In this document: piece after piece, positions 31,685 through 42,260 of the stretch
How positions within the stretch are numbered: the stretch's first letter is position 1
How the letters are laid out: each line of letters opens with the position of its first letter
DNA from: an uncultured Oscillospiraceae bacterium
GTDB lineage: Bacteria > Bacillota > Clostridia > Oscillospirales > Oscillospiraceae
Reading direction: 5' to 3'
Assembly: GCA_947626265.1 (NCBI GenBank)
Contig: CANQRM010000005.1
Span: 46,628 to 110,627 of the forward strand
Length of the DNA stretch: 64,000 nt
The notes under the pieces: model-generated
Seen by the model: the letters and a program-made list of their open reading frames with translations, nothing else
What the model was told of the DNA's origin: nothing
Databases searched by the model: none
Made by a program: the position numbers and the translations under genes

Positions 31685-34071
31685 TGTACAGACTGAATTT
31701 TGACGGCTGGCCCCTGTATGACCCCAGGGGCGCCAACAAAACGGACCGGCTTATCATCCGGGACCCGGACGTGCAAATCGGCGTCAACATGGCCGGCTCC
31801 GTGAAGTTTACCATTGACCCCGGACACCCCAACGCCGACAAGGTTACAAAGCTGCACGGCACCCTGGAATTGACCGACGACGCCGGCGTGCTTTTCCGGG
31901 GCCGTGTGCTGGATGAAAGGCAGACCTTTTATAATGCCGTCGAATATACCGCCGAGGGCGCCCTGGCCTGGCTGAATGACGGCATTGTGGAGCCGTATGA
32001 CTTCCCGGCCGACTTCCAGGCCGACCCGGCGTATCAAGCGGCGGCGGCCTCCGGCAACGTCGTGGCCTTTTTCCTGGGCTGGCTGCTGGACGGCTACAAC
32101 GCCCACGCGCTGCCAGAGCGCCAGATCAAGCTGGGCACCGTCACCGTTGCCGACCCCAACAATTACATAACCCGCGCTGATAGCAACTACCCCTCCACCT
32201 TTGAAGTCATAAGCAAGAAACTGGCCGGCTCCCAGCTGGGCGGCTACCTGGTAATGCGGTATGAGGCCGACGGCAATTATCTTGACTATCTTTCCACATT
32301 CACCGGCACCAACGCCCAGCAAATCACATTCGGCGAAAACCTGCTTGACCTCGTCCGGGAATGTTCGGCGGCTGACGTTTGTACCGCCGTGCTGCCCGTC
32401 GGCGCCGAGGGGCTGACCCTTGAGGGCCTGCCCGACGGCCCCCAGGAAAACGGCCTCGTCAAGGCCGGCAAAGTGCTGTATAACCCCCAGGCCGAGGCGG
32501 ACTATGGCCGGATCATCCGAAAAGTGGAATACAGCGACATAACCCAGGCCCAAAACCTGCTCCGCACCGCCGCAAAGGACATGGGCGCGGAAATCCGGCT
32601 CCCGGAGTCCTTGCAGGTGCAGGCGTGCGACCTGCATTATCTGGACGGCACCGTGCCGTCGTTTCGCCTGGGCCTGTACACCGTCATTGTAAGCGCCCCC
32701 CATGACATCGTCCGCAAATCCTACCCCTTGACCGAACTCCGGCCTAATATCCTGAACCCCGGCGCGACGCCTATAACGCTGAACGGCACCGCCGCCCAGC
32801 TGACCGCCCAGCTCCGCCAGGCCCAGCAGGCCGAACAGGAACGGACGGACTCCGCCATGCGGGCCGTCGTGAAACAGGCGTCGGACATGTTGCAGGAAAT
32901 CCTGGAGCAGGCGTCCGGCCTGTACTGTACCCCGGAAGTCCAGGCGGACGGCTCCACCATCTACTACCTGCACGACAAGCCGACCCTGGCCGACTCCAAG
33001 AATGTAATTAAACTTACGGCTGACGCCATCGGTTTTAGTACGGACGGCGGCCATACCTACCCCTACGGGTTTACTGTCACGGGCGATATGGTGGCCCGCG
33101 TGCTGTCCGCCTACGGCGTAAATGCCGACTGGATCAACGCCGGCACCGTGAACCTGGGCAAGCTCCGCGTGGAGGGCGACCTGGGCGGCATAGCCGAGGG
33201 CCAGGGACAAGACCAATACAGCCTCACGCGCGGGCTGATAATTTACGGCCCGGCCGGCCTGGATGAAAACGGCGTCGCTATCCCGCCCTATATCATTATG
33301 ACGGATAAGGGTTTCCGCGTGCAGATCGACGCCGACCGCAATTTTTACTTTGTGGCCGGGTCCAACCTGGTTGTAAATTCCGGGGAGCGCGTCAACGGCG
33401 CTTTCCGGGCCACGGGGCGGATAAGGTGTGACTCTGATATGTACGCCGGGCAAGCAATCTGGCTGGACCAGGATATGGTGGCAAGCGCCCCCCATATTAG
33501 CGTGTTCACCAGCGAGACCGGCGGCCTTAACCTTGTGGGCTACAGCCGCACCAGCAGCGCCGAGTGGCTTTGCTACGCCGGCGGCCGTCTTGTGATCCAC
33601 GGCGGCGATATAACCTCGGACGTGGCTATCCAGACGACATCAGACCGGGACGCCAAGAAAGACATTGAACCCCTGGAGTACACGCCGGCGGCCCCTGCTG
33701 GCGCGTCTGACAGCCCCCAGGAGGCCCCCAGCATTGACGGCGACCCCAACCCCGCCCCCAGCCTTGCGACGCTGTACGAGGCTTTTGTGGACGCGCTGAC
33801 GCCTGTACGGTTTCACTATAAGGAGCAGGCCGACGCCGACGCGCCCCTGCACATCGGCTATATCTACCAGGACGCCCTGGCGGCGCTGGAGGCCGTGGGC
33901 CTGGGCAAGGCCGACCTGGCGGCCCTGGGCGAGGGCCTGGATGAAAACGGCAACGTCCACAGGGGCATAGCGTACAGCGAACTTATACCCCTGCTGCACC
34001 TCAAGATCAAGCGCCAGGCGGCCGAAATGGACGCGCTGGCGGCCCGCATTACGGCCCTGGAGGCCAGGTAA
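31684..34071 (+). CDS. Tail-associated protein (Tal-like) with C-terminal S74-type intramolecular chaperone domain
   Basis: ORF 31198-34071 trimmed to ATG 31684 (GGAGG upstream), giving 795 aa. The C-terminus TSDRDAKKDIEPL...VRFHYKE...HIGYIYQD...IAYSELIPLLHLKIKRQAAEMDALAARITALE matches the autoproteolytic chaperone-of-endosialidase pattern. Confidence 0.8.
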   Translation: MYRLNFDGWPLYDPRGANKTDRLIIRDPDVQIGVNMAGSVKFTIDPGHPNADKVTKLHGTLELTDDAGVLFRGRVLDERQTFYNAVEYTAEGALAWLNDGIVEPYDFPADFQADPAYQAAAASGNVVAFFLGWLLDGYNAHALPERQIKLGTVTVADPNNYITRADSNYPSTFEVISKKLAGSQLGGYLVMRYEADGNYLDYLSTFTGTNAQQITFGENLLDLVRECSAADVCTAVLPVGAEGLTLEGLPDGPQENGLVKAGKVLYNPQAEADYGRIIRKVEYSDITQAQNLLRTAAKDMGAEIRLPESLQVQACDLHYLDGTVPSFRLGLYTVIVSAPHDIVRKSYPLTELRPNILNPGATPITLNGTAAQLTAQLRQAQQAEQERTDSAMRAVVKQASDMLQEILEQASGLYCTPEVQADGSTIYYLHDKPTLADSKNVIKLTADAIGFSTDGGHTYPYGFTVTGDMVARVLSAYGVNADWINAGTVNLGKLRVEGDLGGIAEGQGQDQYSLTRGLIIYGPAGLDENGVAIPPYIIMTDKGFRVQIDADRNFYFVAGSNLVVNSGERVNGAFRATGRIRCDSDMYAGQAIWLDQDMVASAPHISVFTSETGGLNLVGYSRTSSAEWLCYAGGRLVIHGGDITSDVAIQTTSDRDAKKDIEPLEYTPAAPAGASDSPQEAPSIDGDPNPAPSLATLYEAFVDALTPVRFHYKEQADADAPLHIGYIYQDALAALEAVGLGKADLAALGEGLDENGNVHRGIAYSELIPLLHLKIKRQAAEMDALAARITALEAR

Positions 34072-34082
34072 GGAGGCACCAC

Positions 34083-35156
34083 ATGATTTACACCAGGCAC
34101 ATAACCGTGGACCTGTACGACGACCGTATAACGGAGGTGGAAACCCAACAGGGCGACACCGCCCGCGCCCTGGAAATCACCGTCACCATGGACGGGGAGC
34201 AGCTGACCCCCGCCCCCGGCACCCGCGTTAATTTCCGGGGCCGCAAGCCGGACGGCTACGGCATAGACAACCCCGCGACCATCACCGAACAGAACACCAT
34301 CCGCTATCAATTCACGGAGCAGACCGTGGCATACCCCGGCCGGTTTCCGTGCGACATCTATTTTGTGCAGACCGACGGCACCCTCTCCACCGTCACGTTT
34401 TGGCTAATCGTCAAGCCCCACCCGGCCGGCAAGCCCGGCACCAGCAGCTACGAATACGGGGCCATGGTGGACGCTACAAACAAGGCCCTGGAGGCCGCAG
34501 GCGACGCCTCCGGCGCTGCTGGGGACGCCAGCGCGGCGGCCAGCGCGGCGACCGAGGCGGCCGGCCTTGCGAACACGGCGGCCCAGGCCGCCGGCGAGGC
34601 GACGGAAAAGGCCAACACCGCCGCCGGCCGGGCAGAGACCGCGACCGAGACCGCGAACACCGCCGCCGACGGGGCCAATACAGCAGCGGCCGCCGCCAAT
34701 GCAGCAGCAGGCGACGCTGGGGCCGCTGCTGACAAGGCAAACACAGCGGCCGGGAACGCGGACGCGGCCACGGAAAAAGCCAACGCGGCCGCCCAGGACG
34801 CCTCCGAGGCTGCTACCGCCGCCGACGGGGCAACGGATAGAGCCAACACCGCCGCCGGCCTTGCGGAGTCCGCTGCCGACGGGGCCAACACGGCGACCGG
34901 CGCCGCCCAGGAGGCAACCGACGCCGCCAACGCCGCCGCCCAGCAGGCGACCGGCGCGGCCGCCGAGGCGGACGCCGCGACCGACGAGGCCCTGGAAGCG
35001 GCCGAACAGGCCCGCCAGGCGGCCCAAACCGTCCTGGGGGAGATTGACGGCGTCGTGCTGCTGTCCCTGGACACGCAGCAAAAGTATATTATGCGTTTCC
35101 GCATTTCGGACGGCTGCCCCGCGATCCAGGTAAGCAAAACAATACAGGCCGGATAA
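34083..35156 (+). CDS. BppU-like baseplate/fibre protein with Ala-rich coiled-coil repeats
   Basis: N-terminus ITVDLYDDRITEVETQQGDTARALEITVTMDGEQL...RFPCDIYF resembles the BppU N-terminal Ig-like domain. The central roughly 180 aa hold degenerate (ANTAA/ATEKANxAA) repeats. Confidence 0.7.
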   Translation: MIYTRHITVDLYDDRITEVETQQGDTARALEITVTMDGEQLTPAPGTRVNFRGRKPDGYGIDNPATITEQNTIRYQFTEQTVAYPGRFPCDIYFVQTDGTLSTVTFWLIVKPHPAGKPGTSSYEYGAMVDATNKALEAAGDASGAAGDASAAASAATEAAGLANTAAQAAGEATEKANTAAGRAETATETANTAADGANTAAAAANAAAGDAGAAADKANTAAGNADAATEKANAAAQDASEAATAADGATDRANTAAGLAESAADGANTATGAAQEATDAANAAAQQATGAAAEADAATDEALEAAEQARQAAQTVLGEIDGVVLLSLDTQQKYIMRFRISDGCPAIQVSKTIQAG

Positions 35157-35214
35157 TATGCGGCCGCGATCCACACCATGGAACCCATAAACCTATAACA
35201 GGAGGTAATTTTTT

Positions 35215-36921
35215 ATGGATGAAATCTTGCACACATTCCCCAGCGCGGCCCAGCATGAGCGTATCGCCGTAGCCCTGGAACGGCTGGCAAACGCCAAGGC
35301 CAGCCCCGAATACCTGGACGCCTATTGTGGCCTGCTTATGGACGGCACCAACACGACCGCCGTACTCCGCCAATGGTGGCCCCTGGCCGCCTATGACACC
35401 CCCGACAAGTACGAGCGCCTGTCCCGTTTTGCGGCCATGGCGGCCCAGGCATGGGACGGCAAGGTGTACACCGTGCGCGGCTTTTCGTCCGCGACCGCCG
35501 ACCACGCCATGACGCCCCTTGACGACCTGGCGGGCAAGGGCAAGGCCGTACTGGCGACCGACACGGCCCCCGGCGCTGCTGACTGGGCCGAAGAGGACCC
35601 CATGACCTGGTATATCCGGGCCAACGCCGTAAGCAAACAGGACGGCACTATGGACATCAAGGCCATAGAGGGGGAGCCGGGTTTCGACATTACGGGCGAA
35701 ACGGCCCCCGTGTACACCTTTGCCCTGGCCCTCTGGCGCCGGGAAGTCCGGGACGGGAGCTATACCACGAAAAGCTGGCGGACGACGCAGGCGGGCGGTT
35801 TCCGCCCCTACGCGGGCGACGTGGCCCCGGACGGCACAAAGCGGGCGTTGACCTGGCACCCCACATTCGGCGGGGCGCTGAATAGCAAGGGCAACCTCAC
35901 CAGCGGCGCCGGCCGGCCCCTTGCCATTTTCAAGTCCGCTTTGCAGGGCTTGGAGGCCGCCCGGAAGTGGAACGCCTACGAGGGCCTTTGGTGTGACTGT
36001 GATACCGAATGGCTGCTTGATATGTGGCAGTTGCGGCACCAGGACAAGGAAAACAGCGCGATACTGGAGGGCTGCACAACCTACAATTACCAGTATCAGG
36101 TGGCCGTGGCCGAGAATGGCGTGTCCCGCGTCCTGGTGACGACCGTACAGGGTGCAAATTTCGTGGCCGGCTCCACCGTTTCCGTCGGCGACCATTCGGC
36201 CGCCAGCAACCGGGACCGGGGCCAGGCCGATATGCGGAACCTGGCCGACCAGGTACAGATCACCAGCATAGCCGAGGTGTCTATCGGTGAAACGAAATAC
36301 ACCGCCCTCAACCTGGACCTGGGCGGCAAGGCCATTGACGTACCGGCGGAGGCGTGGGTGTCCACCATGCCCTGGCACACTGGCAGCACGGAGCGCGTAC
36401 CCGGCCATAAGGACGGTTGCCTGGGCAATCTCACCATCGGCAAATACCCCTTGCGCGTGGCCGGCGTGGAGGCCGTGGACGGCGCCTATGCCGTGGGCCT
36501 TGATCCCCTGTATAACGTCGTGGCCGGCTCCGACGGCACGCACTGGACCTATAACCGCGTGGCCGTGTGCAGGGACTCCGAAAACCTGGCCGGCACCATC
36601 GGCGCCGGCTATGAGGACACCGGGATCACTTTTACGGATATGCCCCAGGGCTGGCAGTACGTCAAGGAATTTGCCCAAAACAATGACGGCGTAATTTTCC
36701 CGTCCGAGATCGGCGGCTCCAGTACACAATGGTATAAGTCCGCTTTCTATGGCTCGGATGGCGCCGGCGTCCGCTGTCCGTGGCGTTTTGCCATTCTGTA
36801 TGATACGGCCTCTGCCGGCCTCGCCGCCGGGTGTGGCAACCTTGCGCCCTCGGCGCTGGCCTGGTTTGGCGCGCCCCGGCTTTCCGGGGCGGGTAAAAAG
36901 CGGGGTGAATGGCCGGCGTAA
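35215..36921 (+). CDS. DGR target protein: tail fibre / receptor-binding-position protein carrying the variable region at its C-terminus
   Basis: 568 aa, last structural gene of the tail module. The final roughly 60 codons contain VR (36738-36885). C-terminus: ...YGSDGAGVRCPWRFAILYDTASAGLAAGCGNLAPSALAWFGAPRLSG. Confidence 0.85.
   Translation: MDEILHTFPSAAQHERIAVALERLANAKASPEYLDAYCGLLMDGTNTTAVLRQWWPLAAYDTPDKYERLSRFAAMAAQAWDGKVYTVRGFSSATADHAMTPLDDLAGKGKAVLATDTAPGAADWAEEDPMTWYIRANAVSKQDGTMDIKAIEGEPGFDITGETAPVYTFALALWRREVRDGSYTTKSWRTTQAGGFRPYAGDVAPDGTKRALTWHPTFGGALNSKGNLTSGAGRPLAIFKSALQGLEAARKWNAYEGLWCDCDTEWLLDMWQLRHQDKENSAILEGCTTYNYQYQVAVAENGVSRVLVTTVQGANFVAGSTVSVGDHSAASNRDRGQADMRNLADQVQITSIAEVSIGETKYTALNLDLGGKAIDVPAEAWVSTMPWHTGSTERVPGHKDGCLGNLTIGKYPLRVAGVEAVDGAYAVGLDPLYNVVAGSDGTHWTYNRVAVCRDSENLAGTIGAGYEDTGITFTDMPQGWQYVKEFAQNNDGVIFPSEIGGSSTQWYKSAFYGSDGAGVRCPWRFAILYDTASAGLAAGCGNLAPSALAWFGAPRLSGAGKKRGEWPA
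36738..36885 (+). repeat. DGR variable region (VR)
   Basis: 148 bp collinear with 36988-37135 (offset exactly 250). 16 mismatches, 15 at positions where the TR copy has A. Confidence 0.9.
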
Positions 36922-36948
36922 AGCCGGCCAGAGGGGGCGCCGCCCCCT
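36886..36948 (+). promoter_or_regulatory. Candidate IMH plus downstream hairpins flanking VR
   Basis: G-rich GGGGCGGG (36886-36893) pairs with ACGGCGGG in the TR copy, so the copies diverge at non-A positions here. Then GGCCGGC-gtaaa-GCCGGCC (36911-36929, spanning stop codon 36919-36921) and the palindrome AGGGGGCG-c-CGCCCCCT (36932-36948). Confidence 0.5.
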
Positions 36949-36987
36949 GCTCCAGTTTCGACACAAAAGGGTATTGCAGCGCGAACG

Positions 36988-37135
36988 GTCCGCTTTCTAT
37001 GGCTCGAATGGCGCCGGCGTCCGCTGTCCGTGGCGTTTTGCCAATCTGAATGATACGGCCCATGCCGGCCTCGCCGCCGAGAATGGCAACAATGCGCCCT
37101 CGACGCTGAACTGGAATGACGCGCCCCGGCTTTCC
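36988..37135 (+). repeat. DGR template repeat (TR)
   Basis: Non-coding copy of VR. Read in the VR-equivalent frame it gives Asn-rich SNG..ANLND..AENGNNAP..LNWND (AAY codons). Lies about 235 bp upstream of the RT gene. Confidence 0.9.
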
Positions 37136-37370
37136 ACGGCGGGGAAACGGTATCTTTTTCATCCCCGCCGAAGATTGAAAAATCAAAGCGTTGCAATATC
37201 CCGGCGTATGCCAAAATCATGTGATACCGACTCCGCCCTATGGCGGCCGCCCGGCCCTGGGCCTGGCGGGGGTTAGTAGTAATATCCCGGCGACCTGCTT
37301 TAAGGCCAGCCGGTCAACCGAAAAGCCCCGTACATAAGGAAAGACCTATCCCCCGGAAAGGGGCGACGAT

Positions 37371-38639
37371 ATGAAGCAGCGGTATAAAGACCTGGACCAT
37401 GCTTTGTGCGTCCTGGCCGTCTTAAAAGCCTTTGAGGATAAATGGGACCGCCAGGACGTGCAGGCCGTCGTCAACAAGTACGCCGGGATCACCCGGCGGG
37501 AACTGCTGGCCGACGTGGACCGTGGCAATTTCAATGTCAAGATGGAGGCCGCTGAAAGTATCGCCTACGAACTGGAGCAGCGCGTCGTGGACCTTATGGC
37601 CGGCGACCCCGACGCCCTGGACCTGGAGCCGGTATATGTCCGCCAGCGGCGCGACGGCATGACCGGGAAACTCCGGGATATAGCCGACCTGTGCATATTT
37701 CACCAGCTTTTCGGCCATCTGGTACGCCTGGGCCTGGACCCGCTTTTCAAGGCCCGCATACTGCCCCAGCAGCACGCCAGCCTCCCGGATCACGGCCAGG
37801 TGGCCCTAAAACAGCAAGTGGAGCGGTATCTACGGGCCGACCGCCTGCACATCAAGGCGGCCCTTAAAAAGGACGTACATCATGCCTATCAAAGTACGCA
37901 GTACGCCGTGGCAATAGACCTCCTCCGGCGGGAAATCCCCAGCGCCGCGTGGATTTTCGCCATCCTGGACGCCATGGCCCGGATAGCACCCGGCGGCCAT
38001 CTGATAATAGGCGGCTACCTCGACGCCTGGCTTTTCAATTTCGTTATGTCCTACGCCTTGCGGTACGTCCTGGGGCTGCACAAGACCCGGCGCGGCCGGT
38101 CCGTGCCCCTGGTGTGCCGGACGCCCTGCTATATGGACGACGTGGGCCTGCTGGGCCGCCGCGTGGCTGACATCAAAAGCGCCGCCCGGAAAATGGGCGC
38201 CTGGATGGAGGCCAACCTGGGCCTCCAGTGGAAAGACGACGGCGAACTGACCGAATTTATGACCGTGCAGCAGGAACACCAACGGAAAAAGGCGCCGACG
38301 CCAGCCGGGCGAGGTTGCCCCGGCCTGGATATGGGCGGTTTCGTCATGCACCGCACTTATACCACCATCCGGCCCCGCATTTACATACGCGCCCGCCGGG
38401 CCTACCTCCGCAGCGGCCGGGAGGCGGACGGGACCGGCACCGTAAACGTCCAGCGCGCCCGCCGAAATTCGGCCTATTATGGCTATTACAAGCACACCGC
38501 CTCCGCAGGGGCAAAACGCAAGTACAACGTGGAGAAATTGCAAAACCTGTCTGCCCACGTTGTAGTATATCACGACCGGGCGGCCGCCCGGCAAAGAAAG
38601 GAGCAGCAAGCCCGACATGATAGCAAAATGCACAACTAA
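37371..38639 (+). CDS. Reverse transcriptase (DGR-associated)
   Basis: 422 aa. RT motifs by eye: KLRDIADLCIFHQLFGHLV (1/2), LKKDVHHAYQS (3), IIGGYLDAWLFNFVM (4), CYMDDVGLLG (5, YMDD at aa 254-257), GLQWKDD (6). Immediately downstream of TR. Confidence 0.9.
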   Translation: MKQRYKDLDHALCVLAVLKAFEDKWDRQDVQAVVNKYAGITRRELLADVDRGNFNVKMEAAESIAYELEQRVVDLMAGDPDALDLEPVYVRQRRDGMTGKLRDIADLCIFHQLFGHLVRLGLDPLFKARILPQQHASLPDHGQVALKQQVERYLRADRLHIKAALKKDVHHAYQSTQYAVAIDLLRREIPSAAWIFAILDAMARIAPGGHLIIGGYLDAWLFNFVMSYALRYVLGLHKTRRGRSVPLVCRTPCYMDDVGLLGRRVADIKSAARKMGAWMEANLGLQWKDDGELTEFMTVQQEHQRKKAPTPAGRGCPGLDMGGFVMHRTYTTIRPRIYIRARRAYLRSGREADGTGTVNVQRARRNSAYYGYYKHTASAGAKRKYNVEKLQNLSAHVVVYHDRAAARQRKEQQARHDSKMHN

Positions 38640-38949
38640 CGAAAGGCCGGCCGACGTGGAGATCAACACCATCCCCGACGGCGGCCAGTACGTCCGCCTG
38701 CACCAGAACGCCTCGCAGGTGGACACCCCCAGCATGGACGGCCAGCCGGCCGGCAAGGTGTGGGAAAGTGACGAGGTTTCCTTTTACGCCCCCGCTGACC
38801 GCGAACCGCTGACCGTGGAGGCCGTGACGGCGGACTTTTCCGACTGGTGGACCTACGGCGCCGCCTGGGACCCCGACGCCCCCGCCCCTAGCCTGGACGA
38901 CCGGGTTACAGACCTGGAGGCCGTCATGCTGGCGATCATCGGCGTGTAA
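38617..38949 (+). CDS. Hypothetical acidic phage protein
   Basis: 110-aa ORF overlapping the RT 3' end by 23 nt. The RBS is rather distant. Confidence 0.5.
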   Translation: MIAKCTTNERPADVEINTIPDGGQYVRLHQNASQVDTPSMDGQPAGKVWESDEVSFYAPADREPLTVEAVTADFSDWWTYGAAWDPDAPAPSLDDRVTDLEAVMLAIIGV

Positions 38950-38963
38950 GGGAGGTGACATCG

Positions 38964-39107
38964 TTGTTTGCTTTCATTCGGTCCATGTACAAGCGCGGCG
39001 CCATGACCGCCGCCCAGGTGTGGGCGCTGGCTGACGGCGTCGCCCCGCCCATCACCGCCGAACAGGCCACGCAGATATGCGGCCCCCGGCCGGAGGCCGA
39101 CGCATGA
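38964..39107 (+). CDS. XkdX-like small phage protein
   Basis: TTG start 8 nt after GGAGGTGA. My translation (M)FAFIRSMYKRGAMTAAQVWALADGVAPPITAEQATQICGPRPEADA resembles the XkdX family pattern (Y..G..T..QV...V..G.IT.EE...I.G). Below the ORF-track cut-off. Confidence 0.5.
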   Translation: MFAFIRSMYKRGAMTAAQVWALADGVAPPITAEQATQICGPRPEADA

Positions 39108-39316
39108 ACGCCCTCCAGATCGTCGAAGTCCTGGACACCGTCACCCGTATGCAGGCGGACGTTATAACGGACCTTTTCACGCTGCTATTGCAGCACATCA
39201 CCGCCGAGGAGGCCGACCGCCTCCCGTGCGTTTCCAAGCTAAACGCGGCCGCTGGCCTACGGGCGGACCTGGAAAAGGCCCGCGCCGGGGCCGCCCCGGC
39301 CGACACCAACACATAG
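39104..39316 (+). CDS. Small hypothetical protein
   Basis: ORF 39077-39316 trimmed to ATG 39104 (ATGA overlap, GGAGG upstream). 70 aa, helical. Confidence 0.5.
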   Translation: MNALQIVEVLDTVTRMQADVITDLFTLLLQHITAEEADRLPCVSKLNAAAGLRADLEKARAGAAPADTNT

Positions 39317-39328
39317 GAGGGGCGCCCT

Positions 39329-39571
39329 ATGAGTGACGCAATCGCCGTGGCCCTTATCGGCATGGCCGGCTCTGGCATTGGAGGCTTTGTCGGTATCGTA
39401 GTAAGCGCCAGACTGACCCAATACCGCCTGGAACAACTGGAAAAGAAAGTCCAGGCCCATAACAACCTGATAGACCGCACCTATAAGCTGGAAGAACAGC
39501 AAGCCGTCCAGGAGGAGCAGATCAAGGTTGTAAACCACCGCCTGGCGGACCTGGAAAAGGCCCAGCCATAA
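39329..39571 (+). CDS. Small membrane-anchored coiled-coil protein (lysis-module accessory)
   Basis: 80 aa. N-terminal TM AIAVALIGMAGSGIGGFVGIVV, then the coiled coil LEQLEKKVQAHNNLIDRTYKLEEQQAVQEEQIKVVNHRLADLEK. Sits just upstream of the holin. Confidence 0.55.
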   Translation: MSDAIAVALIGMAGSGIGGFVGIVVSARLTQYRLEQLEKKVQAHNNLIDRTYKLEEQQAVQEEQIKVVNHRLADLEKAQP

Positions 39572-39635
39572 CCCCCAGGGAACGACGGCGGCACCGCCGC
39601 CGCGTCCAAATATTTTTTAAGGAGGAACCCCTAAA

Positions 39636-40118
39636 ATGAAAAAGACCCTTTGCATGATCCTGGCGCTGCTTATGTGCGGCGCGATCCTGGCGACCGTCGG
39701 CGTGGGCGCCATGGCGGCCGAGGAGGCCGACCCCACCGACACCCCGACCGTCCAGGACACCGCCGAACCGGCGCCCGTGACCCCCGCCCCCGCCCCGGAG
39801 GCGACCGTCGCCCCGGAACAGGACCCCGAACCGGCCGGCGATACCGGCGGCGGCATGTCCGCCTTTGAGGTTGCCACTGTGCCCGTCCTGGTAATTATCT
39901 GTTTTGGCGTCGGCCAGTGTATTAAGCCCTGCAACCTGGATAACAAATGGATACCGGCTATCATGGTCCCCGTGGGCGCCATCCTGGGCTTTCTGGCGTT
40001 CCATGTTATGCCGGACTTCCCGGCCGGCGACCCCGTTACTGCCGTGGGCGTCGGCGTGGCAAGCGGCCTGGCGGCGACCGGCATACACCAGGTATATAAG
40101 CAGCTGAAAGAGGTGTAA
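39636..40118 (+). CDS. Holin-like membrane protein with N-terminal signal peptide and acidic Pro-rich extension
   Basis: The C-terminal roughly 85 aa (VPVLVIICFGVGQCIK...DNKWIPAIMVPVGAILGFLAF...GVGVASGLAATGIHQVYKQL) look like a Firmicutes phage holin. Preceded by MKKTLCMILALLMCGAILATVGVGAMA plus a Pro/Glu/Asp/Thr linker. Directly upstream of the endolysin. Confidence 0.7.
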   Translation: MKKTLCMILALLMCGAILATVGVGAMAAEEADPTDTPTVQDTAEPAPVTPAPAPEATVAPEQDPEPAGDTGGGMSAFEVATVPVLVIICFGVGQCIKPCNLDNKWIPAIMVPVGAILGFLAFHVMPDFPAGDPVTAVGVGVASGLAATGIHQVYKQLKEV

Positions 40119-40121
40119 GCC

Positions 40122-40973
40122 ATGGCGACCGCGAAACAGGTACTTGCCGTCGGCGAGGCCCTGGCCGGCGAAAACGAGGCCGTCCTGGGCGCCAACAATA
40201 CCACCGTCAACAGGGAGGCCGGCCTGCCCGGCTCTCCCTATTGCGGGGGCTTTGTGGCCTACGCCCAGAAGCACGGCGGCTCCGCGCTGCTGAATAAGTG
40301 CAGCAACCCCTGGTATGTGCCGACCTTGCGCCAGTACATGGAGGCCCAGGGCTGGCCCAGGGTAAGCACCCCCCAGCCCGGCGACATCTTCATAGAGGGC
40401 GACGATATGCACACCGGCTATTGTGACGAATACCTGGGCAACGGCTACTTTATGACCCTGGAGGGCAACGGCGGCCATGTCAAGGCGTCCAAGGCCGACG
40501 CACGCAACGGCACCGGCTCCACCTATGAGGGTATCGGCTACCGGCGCGCGGCCGTGTCCGGCGGTTTCAAATTCTACCGGCCGCCCTATGACGGCACCAG
40601 CAGCGGCACCCCCGCCCCCGCCCCGGCCCCGGAGCCGAAAAAGACCCCCCAGGACTACGTCAAGGACTGGCAGACCTGGCTCGGCGTGGAGGCCGACGGC
40701 GACCCCGGCGTTAAGACGCTGACCGCCAGCGTGGGCCGCCTGCTGTCTGGCCTGCTGTCCCTGTACTACCTCCGCAGGGGCGACAAGGGGGACGCCGTCA
40801 AGGTTGTGCAGGGCCTCCTGTACGCCCTGGACTACGACCCCGACGGCCTGGACGGCTCCTATGGCCCCGGCATGGAGGCGGCCGTCAAGAAATTCCAGGC
40901 GGACCACGGCCTGGACGCCGACGGGGAGGCCGGTAAGGACACCGTCGCCGCGCTGCTGGCCGCTTTGCAGTAA
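40122..40973 (+). CDS. Endolysin: CHAP-like peptidase plus two peptidoglycan-binding (PG_binding_1) repeats
   Basis: N-terminal SPYCGGFVAYA...GDIFIEGD.MHTGY (Cys/His CHAP-like). C-terminal WQTWLGVEADGDPGVKTL and GDKGDAVKVVQGLLYALDYDPDGLDGSYGPGMEAAVKKFQADHGLDADGEAGKDT. Confidence 0.85.
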   Translation: MATAKQVLAVGEALAGENEAVLGANNTTVNREAGLPGSPYCGGFVAYAQKHGGSALLNKCSNPWYVPTLRQYMEAQGWPRVSTPQPGDIFIEGDDMHTGYCDEYLGNGYFMTLEGNGGHVKASKADARNGTGSTYEGIGYRRAAVSGGFKFYRPPYDGTSSGTPAPAPAPEPKKTPQDYVKDWQTWLGVEADGDPGVKTLTASVGRLLSGLLSLYYLRRGDKGDAVKVVQGLLYALDYDPDGLDGSYGPGMEAAVKKFQADHGLDADGEAGKDTVAALLAALQ

Positions 40974-41221
40974 TGCGGCGACGCGGCCAAGCCCTGGCCC
41001 GGCTGCTGGCCCTGCTTATCCTGGGCGCGTTGTGCGCGTCCTGGGGCTGGCGTGCTGGCGTGGCCTACGCGACCCGGCCCCGTGACTACACCCCCTATAA
41101 TTCGGCGCAAATGTCCTGGATCATAGAGGGGATATGGGAGAGGGCCGCGTCTGAAGCTGACCGCGCCGGCCGAATCCAGCGCGAAAAAATGGCCGAGGAG
41201 GGCCTTATCCCGGCCGAATAA
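40973..41221 (+). CDS. Small membrane protein at the prophage end (lysis accessory or moron)
   Basis: 82 aa, TAATG coupling to the endolysin gene. N-terminal TM LARLLALLILGALCASWGW. Confidence 0.5.
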   Translation: MRRRGQALARLLALLILGALCASWGWRAGVAYATRPRDYTPYNSAQMSWIIEGIWERAASEADRAGRIQREKMAEEGLIPAE

Positions 41222-41274
41222 AGGCGGCCCCTGGTGTCCAATTAGGACTCCGGGGGCCGTTTTCTGTATCTAGT

Positions 41275-41341
41275 GGAATATCTACAAAACCGGGGAATAT
41301 GTGGCCCTGTTTTGGGAATATCTATAAAAATATCTGGAAAA
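41275..41341. repeat. Short direct repeats near the tRNA-proximal att site (candidate integrase arm-type sites)
   Basis: GGAATATCTACAAAA (41275-41289), GGAATAT (41294-41300), GGAATATCTATAAAA (41315-41329) and AATATCTGGAAAA (41329-41341). A related AATATCTA occurs at 5205-5212 beside the other att copy. Confidence 0.4.
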
Positions 41342-41383
41342 CAGGGGCAAAACAGGGACGGCACCGCCTGGCGGGAAAACGTC

Positions 41384-41419
41384 AAAAAGCCCGGAAACAT
41401 AGGCGTTTCCGGGCTTTTT
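41384..41419. terminator. Bidirectional Rho-independent terminator (tRNA-Val / phage lysis operon)
   Basis: AAAAA-GCCCGGAAAC-ataggc-GTTTCCGGGC-TTTTT. Perfect 10-bp stem flanked by an A5 and a T5 run, 4 nt from the tRNA 3' end. Confidence 0.7.
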
Positions 41420-41422
41420 CCC

Positions 41423-41498
41423 TGGTGGACGATACAGGACTTGAACCTGTGACCTCCCGCACGTCAAGCGGATGCGCTACCAGCTGCGCCAATCGTCC
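41423..41498 (-). tRNA. tRNA-Val (anticodon GAC)
   Basis: Folded by hand. Acceptor GGACGAT/ATCGTCC, D-arm GCGC-AGCTGGTA-GCGC, anticodon arm TCCGC-TTGACGT-GCGGG (GAC at 34-36), T-arm ACAGG-TTCAAGT-CCTGT, discriminator A, encoded CCA. 76 nt. Confidence 0.9.
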
Positions 41499-41597
41499 GT
41501 TTCAGCGTTGCTTATTCTATCGCACATTCCCCGCCTTGTCAAGGACAAATTCAAAAAGCCTGCGCCGCTGAGGGCGCAGGCTTTTGCTTCTTTTATA

Positions 41598-42260
41598 TCA
41601 GCCTGTGACGTGAACAGAGACCGTGCCGGTGCCCTGGGGATCGTCGCTGACCTTCACGGTGATGGTCGCGTCGCCGGGGCCTACGATCTTGATATGGCCC
41701 TCGGCGCCGCTGCCCTCTACGGTAGCGACCTCCTCGTTGTCGCTGGTCCACTCAGGCGTGCACATGACGTCCTGGGGATACCAGGAGACGGTGAAGTTAT
41801 AATCCGCGTCGCCCACATGGGCCCAGAAGGTATCGCCGTTATACTCATGGCCTCTCTGATACTGCTCGCCGCTGATGGACACCTGCGTGATCTGCCGGGC
41901 AGGCGTGGGGGACGGGGACGGCGTGGCCGTGGGAGGCGGCACGGGCGTGGTCTGGCTCTCGGCCTCCAGCTGGGTCTGGATCTGCTCGGCCTCCTTCACG
42001 TCCCGGCCCACATTGGCGGACACGATGACGATGGTGAGTATGATCACCGCCAGCAGCAGCACCGCGCCGATGATCATCTGCATATTGACCGCCTCCACCG
42101 CGCTCCTAGCGGCGGGCGTGCCGGGCACGGCGCTGTCCGTCTCCGGCACAGCGGTACGCACCGTCTTTGTCTTTTTGGTGCCGCAGTAGGGGCAGCGGCT
42201 GCGGAACGAAGGATACTGCCGATGACAGCGCCGGCAGGTCGTATTGGGTACGATATTCAT
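41598..42260 (-). CDS. Zinc-ribbon membrane protein with extracellular Ig-like (Big_2-type) domain
   Basis: N-terminal CRRCHRQYPSFRSRCPYCG zinc ribbon, TM IIGAVLLLAVIILTIVIV, Pro/Thr linker, and a C-terminal beta-rich domain (ATVEGSGAEGHIKIVGPGDATITVKV). Confidence 0.7.
   Translation of the reverse strand: MNIVPNTTCRRCHRQYPSFRSRCPYCGTKKTKTVRTAVPETDSAVPGTPAARSAVEAVNMQMIIGAVLLLAVIILTIVIVSANVGRDVKEAEQIQTQLEAESQTTPVPPPTATPSPSPTPARQITQVSISGEQYQRGHEYNGDTFWAHVGDADYNFTVSWYPQDVMCTPEWTSDNEEVATVEGSGAEGHIKIVGPGDATITVKVSDDPQGTGTVSVHVTG

Follow-up and report, generated by a model that had tools for sequence, protein, structure and literature searches.

The window analysed here, a 64,000-nucleotide stretch of DNA whose closest relative is an Oscillospiraceae MAG, carries a phage tail gene, a pair of repeats, a reverse transcriptase (RT) gene and a small acidic ORF in succession on the forward strand. 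We consider it very probable that this is a DGR of the class without Avd or HRDC, functional now or until recently, among the late genes of a temperate tailed phage integrated in a gut Clostridia host. The features are as follows, with the source of each assignment in brackets.

35215..36921 (+): target gene, 568-aa phage tail/receptor-binding-type protein (ORF and profile matches)
36738..36897 (+): VR, variable repeat (direct-repeat comparison with TR)
36892..36912 (+): conserved element GGTAAAAAGCGGGGTGAATGG at the VR 3′ boundary, in the IMH position (27-locus comparison)
36911..36929 (+): GC-rich hairpin GGCCGGC-GTAAA-GCCGGCC directly 3′ of VR (27-locus comparison)
36933..36947 (+): second hairpin, GGGGGCG/CGCCCCC (found in most compared loci)
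36969..36982 (+): upstream strand GGGTATTGCAGCGC of a 14-bp TR-bracketing duplex (pairs with 37188-37201)
36988..37147 (+): TR, template repeat (direct-repeat comparison with VR)
37138..37169 (+): hairpin GGCGGGG...CCCCGCC across the TR 3′ end (aligned loci and MFE fold)
37188..37201 (+): downstream strand GCGTTGCAATATCC of the duplex (pairs with 36969-36982)
37213..37329 (+): structured 3′ domain of the DGR RNA (alignment of 27 loci)
37371..38639 (+): DGR reverse transcriptase, 422 aa (phrog_1423, AF2, Foldseek, family profile)
37461-37541 (+): RT NTE insertion, residues 31-57 (alignment to bRT)
38007-38039 (+): RT motif 4, I213-N223, with D218-A219 replacing SQ
38130-38141 (+): RT YMDD, residues 254-257 (alignment)
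38529-38633 (+): RT C-terminal helix, residues ~387-421 (AF2 model)
38617..38949 (+): small acidic ORF, 110 aa, pI 4.1 (profile search and AF2)
38955..40973 (+): genes outside the DGR, namely an XkdX-like 50-aa ORF, a 79-aa ORF, an XhlA-like ORF, a Hol44 holin and a CHAP/PG_binding endolysin (Pfam)

The repeat pair and its target gene

The target protein matches phrog_17147 (2.7e-125) and the "tail protein" phrog_5302 (3e-11), and its gene has a BppU_N tail gene on one side and the lysis genes on the other. VR forms the 3′ end of this ORF, so that the variable region covers about the last 55 residues. VR and TR constitute a 160-nt direct repeat with 88% identity. They are only 90 nt apart because there is no avd gene to stand between them. 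The initial annotation had noted this closeness but placed the gap at 102 bp, using slightly different repeat ends; its reading of the ORF at 36749-37276 as a read-through of VR and TR, in a frame other than that of the target gene, was correct.

Of 19 mismatches between the repeats, 16 fall at TR adenines (16/27) and three at other bases (3/133; Fisher p = 2.5e-12), two of these three being at the VR 3′ boundary. The mismatches are distributed 9/9/1 over codon positions 1/2/3, and the 27 TR adenines lie chiefly within AAY codons in the VR reading frame. The same bias was found in 79 related loci picked by position only, in which TR adenines account for 1,194 of 1,231 TR/VR mismatches (97%); 58% of TR adenines differ, compared with 0.39% of other bases. 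Variation restricted to VR is also seen among close relatives: four target proteins with 95-97% identity differ mostly within their final 57 residues.

At the VR 3′ boundary, GGTAAAAAGCGGGGTGAATGG overlaps the end of the target gene, and the TR sequence differs there. Its DNA is near-identical in most of 27 compared loci (RT identity to the window RT, 43-83%), and by analogy with the Bordetella model it probably acts as the IMH. Most of these loci also have, by eye, a post-VR hairpin with a varying stem and a GTAA-type loop. The window hairpin (36911-36929) sits where the target-site hairpin/cruciform stands in other DGRs, and may by analogy serve the same function. The second hairpin, which reads AGAGGGG...CCCCT in relatives, possibly marks the end of the target transcript; the terminator scan did not call it because no T-run follows.

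The reverse transcriptase and the template RNA

The RT, 422 aa long as first annotated, matches phrog_1423 "Reverse transcriptase" (3e-32) and has the fold of bRT, to which it is related. Its AF2 model (pLDDT 95.3) has as top Foldseek match in the PDB the bRT chain 8ub7_A of the DGR RNP (E = 3e-13; TM 0.80, by bRT length), which ranks above group II intron and G2L4 RTs, and bRT is the sole PDB match of the RT-family profile (1e-10). As a single sequence the window RT gave neither a Pfam RVT_1 match nor a PDB sequence match, in line with its initial description as divergent. Catalytic residues D168, D256 and D257 are invariant in 102 RT sequences, together with K100, R102, I213 and G214. In bRT, R74 and I181 promote adenine mutagenesis; the window RT retains them as R102 and I213.

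Motif 4, noted earlier by eye as IGGYLDAW, aligns to IGSLTSQL of bRT, and the SQ dipeptide is truly replaced. More than 100 loci in phages of gut and rumen Clostridia make up the RT family, which has (D/E)A at the SQ position of DGR RTs and is a subclade marked by this substitution of the hallmark motif. Its adenine mutagenesis is still typical of DGRs, as the mismatches in the 79 loci show. Two extensions had also been proposed. The approximately 90 helical residues before motif 1 exist, but they are the NTE domain, found in bRT too, plus one 27-aa insertion. The basic tail of about 90 aa supposed to follow the thumb is mostly thumb: residues 318-345 align to bRT 257-284, the model has helices at 335-355, 360-374 and 379-384, and only the one long helix at ~387-421 extends beyond bRT.

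The MFE fold likewise contains the 14-bp duplex around TR. FP_Epona and 19 of 25 family loci have a gap-free 13/13 pairing in the corresponding place, in which many of the changes are compensatory. This agrees with the upstream:downstream duplex that has been described in 207 other DGRs (bioRxiv 10.1101/2023.10.23.563531). The hairpin across the TR 3′ end is present, with varying sequence, in the aligned loci (by eye) and in the MFE fold. In the Bordetella spacer RNA, the stem-loop that binds Avd stands at the corresponding place.

The TR-RT gap encodes a conserved, covarying structured RNA. This gap had been described as 235 bp without an ORF; it is 223 nt and contains short ORFs of 48 and 44 aa. 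Conserved motifs in the 3′ domain are AAAATCA, ACCG, GGGGYTAGTAGTAATA, TTTAAGG and CAACCGAAA, and its helices pair 37233-37236 with 37243-37246, 37247-37256 with 37260-37268 and 37269-37273 with 37324-37328. From the 27-locus alignment RNAalifold called 18 pairs, 16 of which show compensatory changes. Pairing holds in 90.4% of alignment cells, compared with 63% in shuffles and 38-51% with slid partners, and the covariation score is 0.77 versus 0.26. A promoter scan for the template RNA gave nothing convincing, and no Rfam family, intron RNA included, was found in 34000-42000.

The missing SQ and RVT_1 match could suggest a decaying relic whose RT has lost its activity and whose TR/VR differences are historical. 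We regard this as highly improbable: the (D/E)A motif and catalytic residues are kept across ~170 sequences, the differences are adenine-specific in 79 loci with hardly any change at other positions, VR differs among prophages whose target proteins are otherwise so similar, and the flanking RNA has evolved by compensatory change. The whole cassette is conserved across related loci.

Absence of Avd and the ORF after the RT

To our knowledge, the sole DGR with in-depth biochemistry requires Avd, and an Avd-free mechanism is therefore without an experimental model. The two strands of 35000-41300 hold 62 ORFs of 40 aa or more, and Avd and HRDC models matched none of them at E ≤ 1. Elsewhere in the window, another 133 ORFs (80-220 aa) gave no match below E ~0.01. 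Both positive controls matched PF22296 (BPP-1 Avd, 7e-36; Bacillus phage BalMu-1 Avd, 6e-42). The element is thus a compact DGR for which no Avd or HRDC gene was found in the window, as initially proposed.

The further proposal of an undescribed minimal architecture is ruled out by published Avd-less layouts. In Wu et al. (2018; PMC5758913), Architecture A is TR-RT with no accessory gene and makes up 29% (75/372) of DGRs, and one DGR lineage is without avd; among Faecalibacterium phage DGRs, Avd homologues occur in just two (Cornuault et al., 2018; PMC5883640). The layout is known; what marks this element is its conserved acidic ORF and an RT without the hallmark SQ. The main text of PMC5758913 makes no mention of a DA motif or a conserved downstream ORF.

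An Avd-type protein could be supplied in trans by the host or prophage genome, or be too divergent for detection. The search covered 64 kb of genome, and avd genes are described as poorly conserved (PMC5758913). However, the models strongly detect both proteobacterial and Firmicutes Avd and matched none of the small ORFs of the window, the survey of Wu et al. reports no distant avd in genomes with Avd-less DGRs (PMC5758913), and dependence on a host gene would make a phage-borne DGR fragile across hosts. We judge this very unlikely.

Alternatively, as the initial annotation suggested, the RT itself may cover the function of Avd through parts specific to its lineage, which here would be the 27-aa NTE insertion, the basic C-terminal helix or both. 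The insertion (helices 28-38 and 42-50) is present throughout the (D/E)A family and comes right after invariant K24, by alignment the equivalent of bRT K29. In the bRT-Avd-RNA structure, Avd binds to the NTE and braces the loop that carries K29 (bioRxiv 10.1101/2023.10.23.563531), which puts the insertion beside the lysine loop that Avd braces. Against this, Epona- and Arawn-type RTs have neither Avd nor the insertion, the C-terminal helix is variable in both length and sequence, a basic C-terminus is a general trait of DGR RTs, for which C-terminal extensions have been described too (PMC3521204; PMC5758913), and no part of the RT family is similar to Avd in sequence (hhalign probability 0.4%; Pfam). 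We consider coverage by the RT possible but unlikely.

The acidic ORF and the end of the RT gene, stop codon included, share 23 nt. Its family members are 100-146 aa long with pI 4.1-4.9, and the RTs of ORF-bearing loci group into 33 clusters when 90% identity is required and into 16 when 60% is. The AF2 model (pLDDT 82.5) has an alpha+beta fold, which found no match in the PDB, and the protein is not Avd-like. The initial annotation had overlooked the conservation of this 110-aa ORF with the RT.

Two roles are conceivable for the ORF, that of a new accessory factor and that of a gene tied to the tail protein. Several observations point to a dedicated protein doing Avd's or another essential job in related Firmicutes-phage DGRs. 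A profile of the ORF locates it beside the RT in every tested locus except FP_Epona, and in 105 of 111 loci its inferred start lies within the 3′ end of the RT gene. Butyrivibrio phage Arawn, whose RT is of the SQ type and whose target protein has no BLASTP similarity to the window target, carries a homologue of the ORF behind its RT (hhalign 93.7%, E = 2e-7), and the three distant homologues looked up all directly follow an RT. Neither RT nor ORF accompanies ten relatives of the neighbouring tail gene that lie outside DGRs, and in Avd-bearing BalMu-1 the RT is not followed by an ORF of this kind. There are also precedents: small acidic "CH1" genes confined to DGRs without avd, described in PMC5758913, and the suggestion of "another small protein" in PMC5883640.

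On the other hand, two related loci (L014 and L024) keep the ORF and the XkdX-like gene directly after the target, with TR-RT further downstream, an order that fits a gene tied to the tail protein (e.g., a chaperone or XkdW-position gene). A pI of 4.1 is unpromising for nucleic-acid binding, the fold matches nothing informative, and the homologue searches are biased towards RT contexts because RT-adjacent sequences were their starting points. ORFs in the same place in FP_Epona (probability 32%), LBR48 and MT835469 are candidate homologues only. We thus hold a dedicated accessory role to be a tentative possibility; if it applies, the cassette is not minimal.

For a DGR working without Avd or HRDC, we propose the following course. 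A transcript would run from ~36965 to the start of the RT gene. In its fold, TR would be enclosed by the 14-bp duplex (36969-36982/37188-37201) and capped at its 3′ end by a hairpin, with the conserved three-helix domain next. The RT would bind this RNA and copy TR into cDNA, misincorporating opposite adenines. If the Bordetella element is a guide, the spacer RNA would prime this synthesis in cis. The RNA elements presumably bind partner proteins, and Avd's bracing role might be covered by the NTE insertion, by the acidic ORF or by neither. With the conserved GC-rich boundary element and the post-VR hairpin as guides, the cDNA would then replace VR at the 3′ end of the tail gene and alter the receptor-binding tip at up to 27 adenine-templated positions.

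Comparison with known systems

As in the DGR of Bordetella phage BPP-1 (mtd-avd-TR-brt), VR ends a tail receptor-binding gene, TR lies just before the RT and mismatches are adenine-specific. The two also share the RT fold (8ub7_A), NTE, YMDD and equivalents of K29, R74 and I181, a template RNA with an upstream:downstream duplex, a hairpin directly after TR and a structured 3′ domain, and a GC-rich boundary element and hairpin after VR. Unlike BPP-1, the window has no avd between VR and TR, and motif 4 ends in DA rather than SQ. Its RT is 94 aa longer than bRT. The additions are the 27-aa insertion in the NTE, 9 aa that form a hairpin ahead of YMDD, ~17 aa inserted behind motif 7, and the C-terminal helix. 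The acidic ORF overlaps the RT stop, whereas bbp4, in that position in BPP-1, is unrelated.

Group II intron and G2L4 RTs are the next-best structural matches (TM 0.56-0.59) and share the NTE and thumb, but there is no sequence-profile match, the window RT is without maturase, DNA-binding and endonuclease domains, and its motif 4 starts with IG, not QG. In contrast to group II introns, Rfam found no intron RNA in 34000-42000.

By description only, the element resembles Architecture A/Lineage 3 of Wu et al. (2018; PMC5758913) in its TR-RT core without avd, HRDC or MSL, single adjacent target, phage association and very few non-adenine substitutions. The acidic ORF, again compared by description only, resembles CH1 of Bacteroides DGRs in the same study, small acidic motif-less proteins conserved beside the cassette and only in DGRs without avd, HRDC or MSL; CH1 has 160-169 aa and pI 4.7, versus 100-146 aa and pI 4.1-4.9 here.

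The RTs of FP_Epona (Faecalibacterium) and Arawn (Butyrivibrio) differ from the window RT in having SQ, passing Pfam RVT_1 (1e-14 to 1e-16) and lacking the NTE insertion, and their target proteins have no detectable similarity to the window target. Nevertheless, these RTs align with it end to end at 21-25% identity, both phages have no annotated Avd (PMC5883640), and the order of tail target, TR, RT, small ORF, XkdX-like gene and lysis genes is the same. Epona also has a 13-bp TR-bracketing duplex, and the downstream ORF of Arawn is homologous to the acidic ORF of the window.

The repeat pair and its prophage setting

The window (62% G+C) contains a 160-nt direct repeat with copies at 36738-36897 and 36988-37147 that share 88% identity. 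The first copy is the 3′ end (final 160 nt) of a 568-aa ORF at 35215-36921, and the second, which is non-coding, is followed after 223 nt by a 422-aa reverse transcriptase (RT) ORF at 37371-38639. The copies differ at 19 positions: 16 of the 27 adenines in the second copy and three of its 133 other bases (Fisher p = 2.5e-12). Counted by codon positions 1, 2 and 3 the differences number 9, 9 and 1, and thus the mismatches within the coding target gene occur at positions 1 and 2 almost exclusively. AAY codons are abundant when the second copy is read in the target frame. A repeat pair with adenine-centred differences of this kind is the variable repeat (VR) and template repeat (TR) signature of a diversity-generating retroelement (DGR). 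An ORF at 36749-37276 is, as the initial annotation had it, a read-through of VR and TR; its frame differs from that of the target gene, which rules it out as a gene.

Four target proteins with 95-97% identity to that of the window diverge from it mostly in the final 57 residues. In a 570-aa relative of the target protein (P0128, on an 11.7-kb contig), the VR translation is near-identical to the TR translation, and the final ~13 residues are unlike those of other relatives. This VR could be freshly homed and barely mutated, or it could reflect collapse of VR and TR during assembly.

The genes are ordered as a BppU_N tail gene, the target, TR, RT, a small ORF, XkdX, XhlA, holin and endolysin, followed by a tRNA gene that is likely the attachment site and the right end of the prophage:

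41423-41498, minus strand: tRNA-Val (GAC), ~450 nt past the endolysin gene and beyond an 82-aa ORF at 40973-41221

By eye, the genes to the right of the tRNA look bacterial rather than phage-like. The BppU_N gene (34083-35156) includes degenerate direct repeats (34545-34939) spaced by multiples of 21 nt, which code for an Ala/Thr/Asn-rich run (ANTAA-type). Similar repeats occur in relatives. In positions 1-31000, small ORFs matched Pfam models for HU (Bac_DNA_binding), Phage_Gp19, a tail tube protein, an HNH endonuclease, a scaffolding protein (DUF4355) and several HTH regulators. Given these phage-type matches, the same prophage seems to take up much of the window's left half.

The reverse transcriptase and its relatives

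As a single sequence the RT had no match in Pfam, NCBIfam or PDB sequences, and its placement came only from PHROGs, a family profile and a fold search. It matched the PHROG "Reverse transcriptase" family (3e-32), and when the family profile was compared with all PDB sequences, the sole match was bRT, the DGR enzyme of Bordetella phage BPP-1 (1e-10). The AlphaFold2 model (102-sequence alignment; pLDDT 95.3, pTM 0.91) had as its best Foldseek match among solved structures bRT in the Bordetella DGR ribonucleoprotein (8ub7_A, E = 3e-13, TM 0.80 on bRT length), which outranked G2L4, group II intron, DRT and retron RTs. An RT of group II intron, retron or defence type was rejected, as these gave weaker fold matches than bRT and were absent from the profile search. 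An Rfam search of 34000-42000 at E ≤ 1 detected no intron or msr/msd ncRNA, only a tRNA and a chance leader match. The RTs of FP_Epona and of Butyrivibrio phage Arawn align with the window RT end to end. Judged by profile, fold match and alignments, the predicted protein is a DGR-clade RT.

Members of the RT family are 405-465 aa long. A word-indexed search returned 360 matches, only some of which carry a precomputed RVT_1 call, and a full scan of 1.84 billion cluster representatives gave 478 matches at E ≤ 1e-3 and 53 at E ≤ 1e-30. NCBI labels them "hypothetical protein" or "reverse transcriptase domain-containing protein."

In the alignment with bRT and the FP_Epona and Arawn RTs, the catalytic residues D168, D256 and D257 are invariant, as are K24 in the N-terminal extension (NTE; bRT K29), R102 (bRT R74) and I213 (bRT I181). 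R74 and I181 promote adenine mutagenesis in bRT (PMC7826257). Motif 4 of the window RT is IIGGYLDAWLFN, aligned with IGSLTSQLFAN in bRT, LGFYISQWLAN in FP_Epona and LGNYTSQWFAN in Arawn. The [I/V/L]GxxxSQ signature of DGR RTs is therefore absent (I-G-G-Y-L-D-A), with its IG part kept. In the full set of collected proteins, the two residues at the SQ position are DA in 134, EA in 36, DG in three and DS in one. More distant relatives have SA, ST or SS at this position and link the (D/E)A family to SQ-type RTs; the most distant have SQ, and the full IGxxxSQ motif was seen in more distant relatives from the representative-library search. This graded series from DA/EA through SA/ST/SS to SQ with growing distance, together with the alignment, confirms the earlier by-eye placement of motif 4 and the true replacement of SQ. 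The SQ dipeptide occurs in 90% of DGR RTs, and SP, SH, NQ, PA, AQ and VQ variants have been reported (Schillinger et al. 2012, PMC3521204). As ~10% of published DGR RTs lack SQ, its loss here weakens the signature rather than the assignment to DGRs. In bRT, the Q187P substitution leaves the misincorporation frequency unchanged (PMC7826257).

Pattern-plus-tblastn scans recovered 23 loci in bacterial genomes and a further 80 in IMG/VR. Among the genome loci listed, the closest belongs to an Oscillospiraceae MAG; its RT and that of the window share 83% identity. Others are from many Clostridia MAGs from the gut of rabbit, deer, cattle and human, and from Fusicatenibacter faecihominis and Hominifimenecus microfluidus. 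At 90% identity the full-length RTs form 33 clusters; at 60% they form 16. We chose TR by position only, as a repeat ending 40-420 nt before the RT. This rule yielded a VR/TR pair in 79 loci, in which TR adenines account for 1194 of 1231 mismatches (97%); the share of positions that differ is 58% for TR adenines and 0.39% for other bases. The spacing of VR and TR is typically 90-150 nt, and in most loci ~170-260 nt separate the end of TR from the RT. From this bias and the VR-end divergence of close target proteins, we infer that the (D/E)A clade performs, or recently performed, canonical adenine mutagenesis. In large numbers, the clade gives clear evidence that RTs can carry out adenine-specific mutagenesis without the SQ dipeptide.

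The cassette is rearranged in two loci from rumen Clostridiales and Ruminococcaceae MAGs (L014, 7105-7574, and L024). There, VR and TR are separated by 581 nt that hold a small acidic ORF and an XkdX-like gene, and behind the RT come a 51-aa ORF and the endolysin gene. The TR-RT module can therefore move relative to the target.

Based on the alignment and the AlphaFold2 model, the RT family has four additions relative to bRT:

RT residues 31-57: insertion of 27 residues in the NTE, with helices at 28-38 and 42-50
Before YMDD: beta-hairpin of 9 residues
After motif 7: insertion of ~17 residues
RT residues ~387-421: long C-terminal helix

The initial annotation had described a basic tail beyond the thumb, but the region that starts at RPRIYIRARR is mostly the thumb itself, aligned to bRT 257-284. 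DGR RTs with a basic C-terminal region or a C-terminal extension have been described before (PMC3521204, PMC5758913). A fused Avd within the RT was ruled out by Pfam searches of residues 1-96 and 327-422 and by hhalign.

Conserved elements around TR and VR

The TR-RT gap, earlier described as free of ORFs, does contain two short ORFs; we rejected these as genes, and the gap is instead a conserved RNA. An alignment of 27 loci shows conserved blocks AAAATCA, ACCG, GGGGYTAGTAGTAATA, TTTAAGG and CAACCGAAA. RNAalifold predicted 18 pairs in the gap, 16 of them with compensatory changes. In this structure 90.4% of cells pair, compared with 63% after shuffling and 38-51% when the partners are slid, and the covariation score of the three gap helices is 0.77 vs 0.26.

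Pairing also joins a segment that lies 14-26 nt before TR to one mostly 28-61 nt after it. The duplex and the adjoining hairpin are in the window as follows:

36969-36982: upstream strand of the TR-bracketing duplex, GGGTATTGCAGCGC
37188-37201: downstream strand of the duplex, GCGTTGCAATATCC, pairing with the upstream strand
37138-37169: hairpin closing the 3′ end of TR, with sequence that changes between loci

The duplex, 13-14 bp long, pairs 13/13 without a gap in 19 of 25 family loci as well as FP_Epona. Compensatory changes are many, and the MFE fold of the window sequence contains the duplex. The case for this duplex rests on fixed position and covariation across loci; RNAduplex with mononucleotide shuffles gave no discrimination in this GC-rich sequence. 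In the Bordetella DGR RNA, an upstream:spacer duplex, an Avd-binding stem-loop directly after TR and further spacer elements place the cis-primer, and comparable duplexes were predicted in 207 other DGRs (bioRxiv 10.1101/2023.10.23.563531). The window has the same layout, with a flanking duplex, a post-TR stem-loop and a structured spacer before the RT. A promoter and terminator scan gave no usable signal for the template RNA.

Three elements downstream of VR recur in most of the 27 compared loci:

36892-36912: conserved 21-nt boundary element
36911-36929: GC hairpin with a GTAA-type loop and a changing stem
36933-36947: second hairpin

They occupy the positions of the IMH and target hairpin, of which they may be counterparts.

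Accessory genes and comparison with described DGRs

An Avd or HRDC accessory gene is typical of most DGRs, though not of all. None was found beside TR and RT here, in agreement with the initial annotation. Among 62 ORFs of ≥40 aa on both strands of 35000-41300, a Pfam search at E ≤ 1 detected no PF22296, PF05635 or PF00570 (HRDC); the matches were to BppU_N, XkdX, XhlA, holin, CHAP and PG_binding. Neither Avd nor HRDC was among the matches listed, down to E = 0.0097, for 133 further ORFs of 80-220 aa in the rest of the window. No MutS-type protein was among the Pfam matches listed. The Avd models recovered the positive controls, Avd of BPP-1 (7e-36) and of Bacillus phage BalMu-1 (6e-42). With hhalign, the Avd profile scored probabilities of ≤0.4% against the small-ORF family, a 79-aa ORF and the RT family. 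We consider two candidates for the missing function of Avd, namely the NTE insertion, which stands for the RT-borne substitute proposed in the initial annotation, and the co-transcribed small ORF behind the RT:

38617-38949: small acidic ORF, 110 aa, pI 4.1, overlapping the RT stop codon by 23 nt

The small ORF is not an Avd, which is a basic four-helix bundle of ~110-130 aa, given its pI of 4.1, alpha+beta model, hhalign probability of 0.1% and lack of a Pfam match. In its AlphaFold2 model (pLDDT 82.5), three helices come after four beta-strands. XkdW and any solved fold were also rejected (no Pfam match, and no PDB match below E = 0.1), and BFVD matches of the model were only three uncharacterised gut-phage proteins. 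Two versions of a tblastn search of the phage collection with the small ORF returned no match.

An accessory role of the small acidic ORF in the DGR is possible, though less likely than not. In its favour, a profile of the ORF found a homologue beside the RT in every tested locus but FP_Epona (E = 1e-16 to 1e-39), and in 105 of 111 loci its inferred start lies within the 3′ end of the RT gene. Homology of the family extends to the ORF that follows the SQ-type RT of Arawn (hhalign 93.7%), a phage with a target protein of no detectable relation to that of the window, and three distant homologues are all directly after an RT. Moreover, RT and small ORF are both absent from ten non-DGR relatives of the neighbouring tail gene, and the Avd-bearing cassette of BalMu-1 has no ORF between RT and holin. 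However, in L014 and L024 the small ORF and the XkdX-like gene directly follow the target, upstream of TR-RT, as would fit a gene tied to the tail protein, and the homologue searches were seeded from RT-adjacent sequences.

Other cassettes also have ORFs behind the RT. In Lactobacillus phage LBR48, the last 47 nt of the RT gene are shared with a 136-aa ORF (L128, 1840-2250), and a 43-aa ORF comes next; the layout mirrors that of the window, with no detectable likeness of the 136-aa ORF to the small-ORF family. The SQ-type DGR of a 176-kb phage from human faeces (L117, 7651-8160; MT835469.1) has an RNase H gene between VR and TR (PF00075 6e-12, RVT_3 2e-9), and a 116-aa acidic ORF that overlaps the RT stop and precedes a GIY-YIG/NUMOD endonuclease gene. 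A stand-alone RNase H is unusual in a DGR cassette; the RNA:cDNA hybrid might be its substrate. For the ORFs behind the RT in FP_Epona, LBR48 and MT835469, no homology with the small-ORF family could be demonstrated. A small ORF across the RT stop may be a general trait of Avd-less DGRs of Firmicutes phages.

To our knowledge, all detailed DGR biochemistry and the sole ribonucleoprotein structure come from the Avd-dependent Bordetella element. The family described here bears on how reverse transcription proceeds in the quarter or more of DGRs without Avd. It is a compact, well-sampled test case, with more than 100 loci, a high-confidence RT model and covariation-defined RNA helices, and it is relevant to the engineering of small DGR-based mutagenesis tools. 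Adenine mutagenesis without SQ is also of consequence for pipelines that detect DGRs by RVT_1 or the SQ signature. Tentatively, and with considerable doubt, we suggest that the small acidic protein could be an unrecognised accessory factor in a second, Avd-independent route of ribonucleoprotein assembly in phages of Clostridia and other Firmicutes, which with the SQ-less, adenine-mutagenising RT clade would form a distinct mechanistic subclass of DGRs.

In the texts of the DGR studies consulted, we found no large coherent (D/E)A clade, no NTE insertion of such a clade beside the Avd-braced loop and no conserved acidic ORF common to these and Arawn-type DGRs, though their supplementary catalogues may contain any of these unremarked. 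The initial annotation was right in its sequence observations at the locus, but its proposal of an undescribed minimal architecture does not hold, as Avd-less DGRs have been published (PMC5758913, PMC5883640). In a survey of 372 DGRs, avd was present in 74%, Architecture A (TR-RT, no accessory gene) accounted for 29%, C-terminal RT extensions occurred in ~20%, and one lineage lacked avd, with no distant avd in such genomes (Wu et al. 2018, PMC5758913). In Faecalibacterium phages, Avd homologues were found in only two genera, and another small protein was suggested for the others (Cornuault et al. 2018, PMC5883640). Taken with Schillinger et al. and the bRT data, these studies already cover the compact layout without Avd, an extended basic C-terminus and a degree of SQ variation, and the Avd-less architecture by itself would not surprise a DGR specialist. 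Architecture A1 of Wu et al. (target, TR, RT, no accessory gene) has none of avd, HRDC, MSL and CH1 in the cassette; the cassette here, from which Avd and HRDC are absent, may belong to it. Given the conserved acidic ORF, however, it may yet contain an accessory gene. The element is a genuine DGR of the Avd-less class known from earlier work, located in the late region of a prophage.
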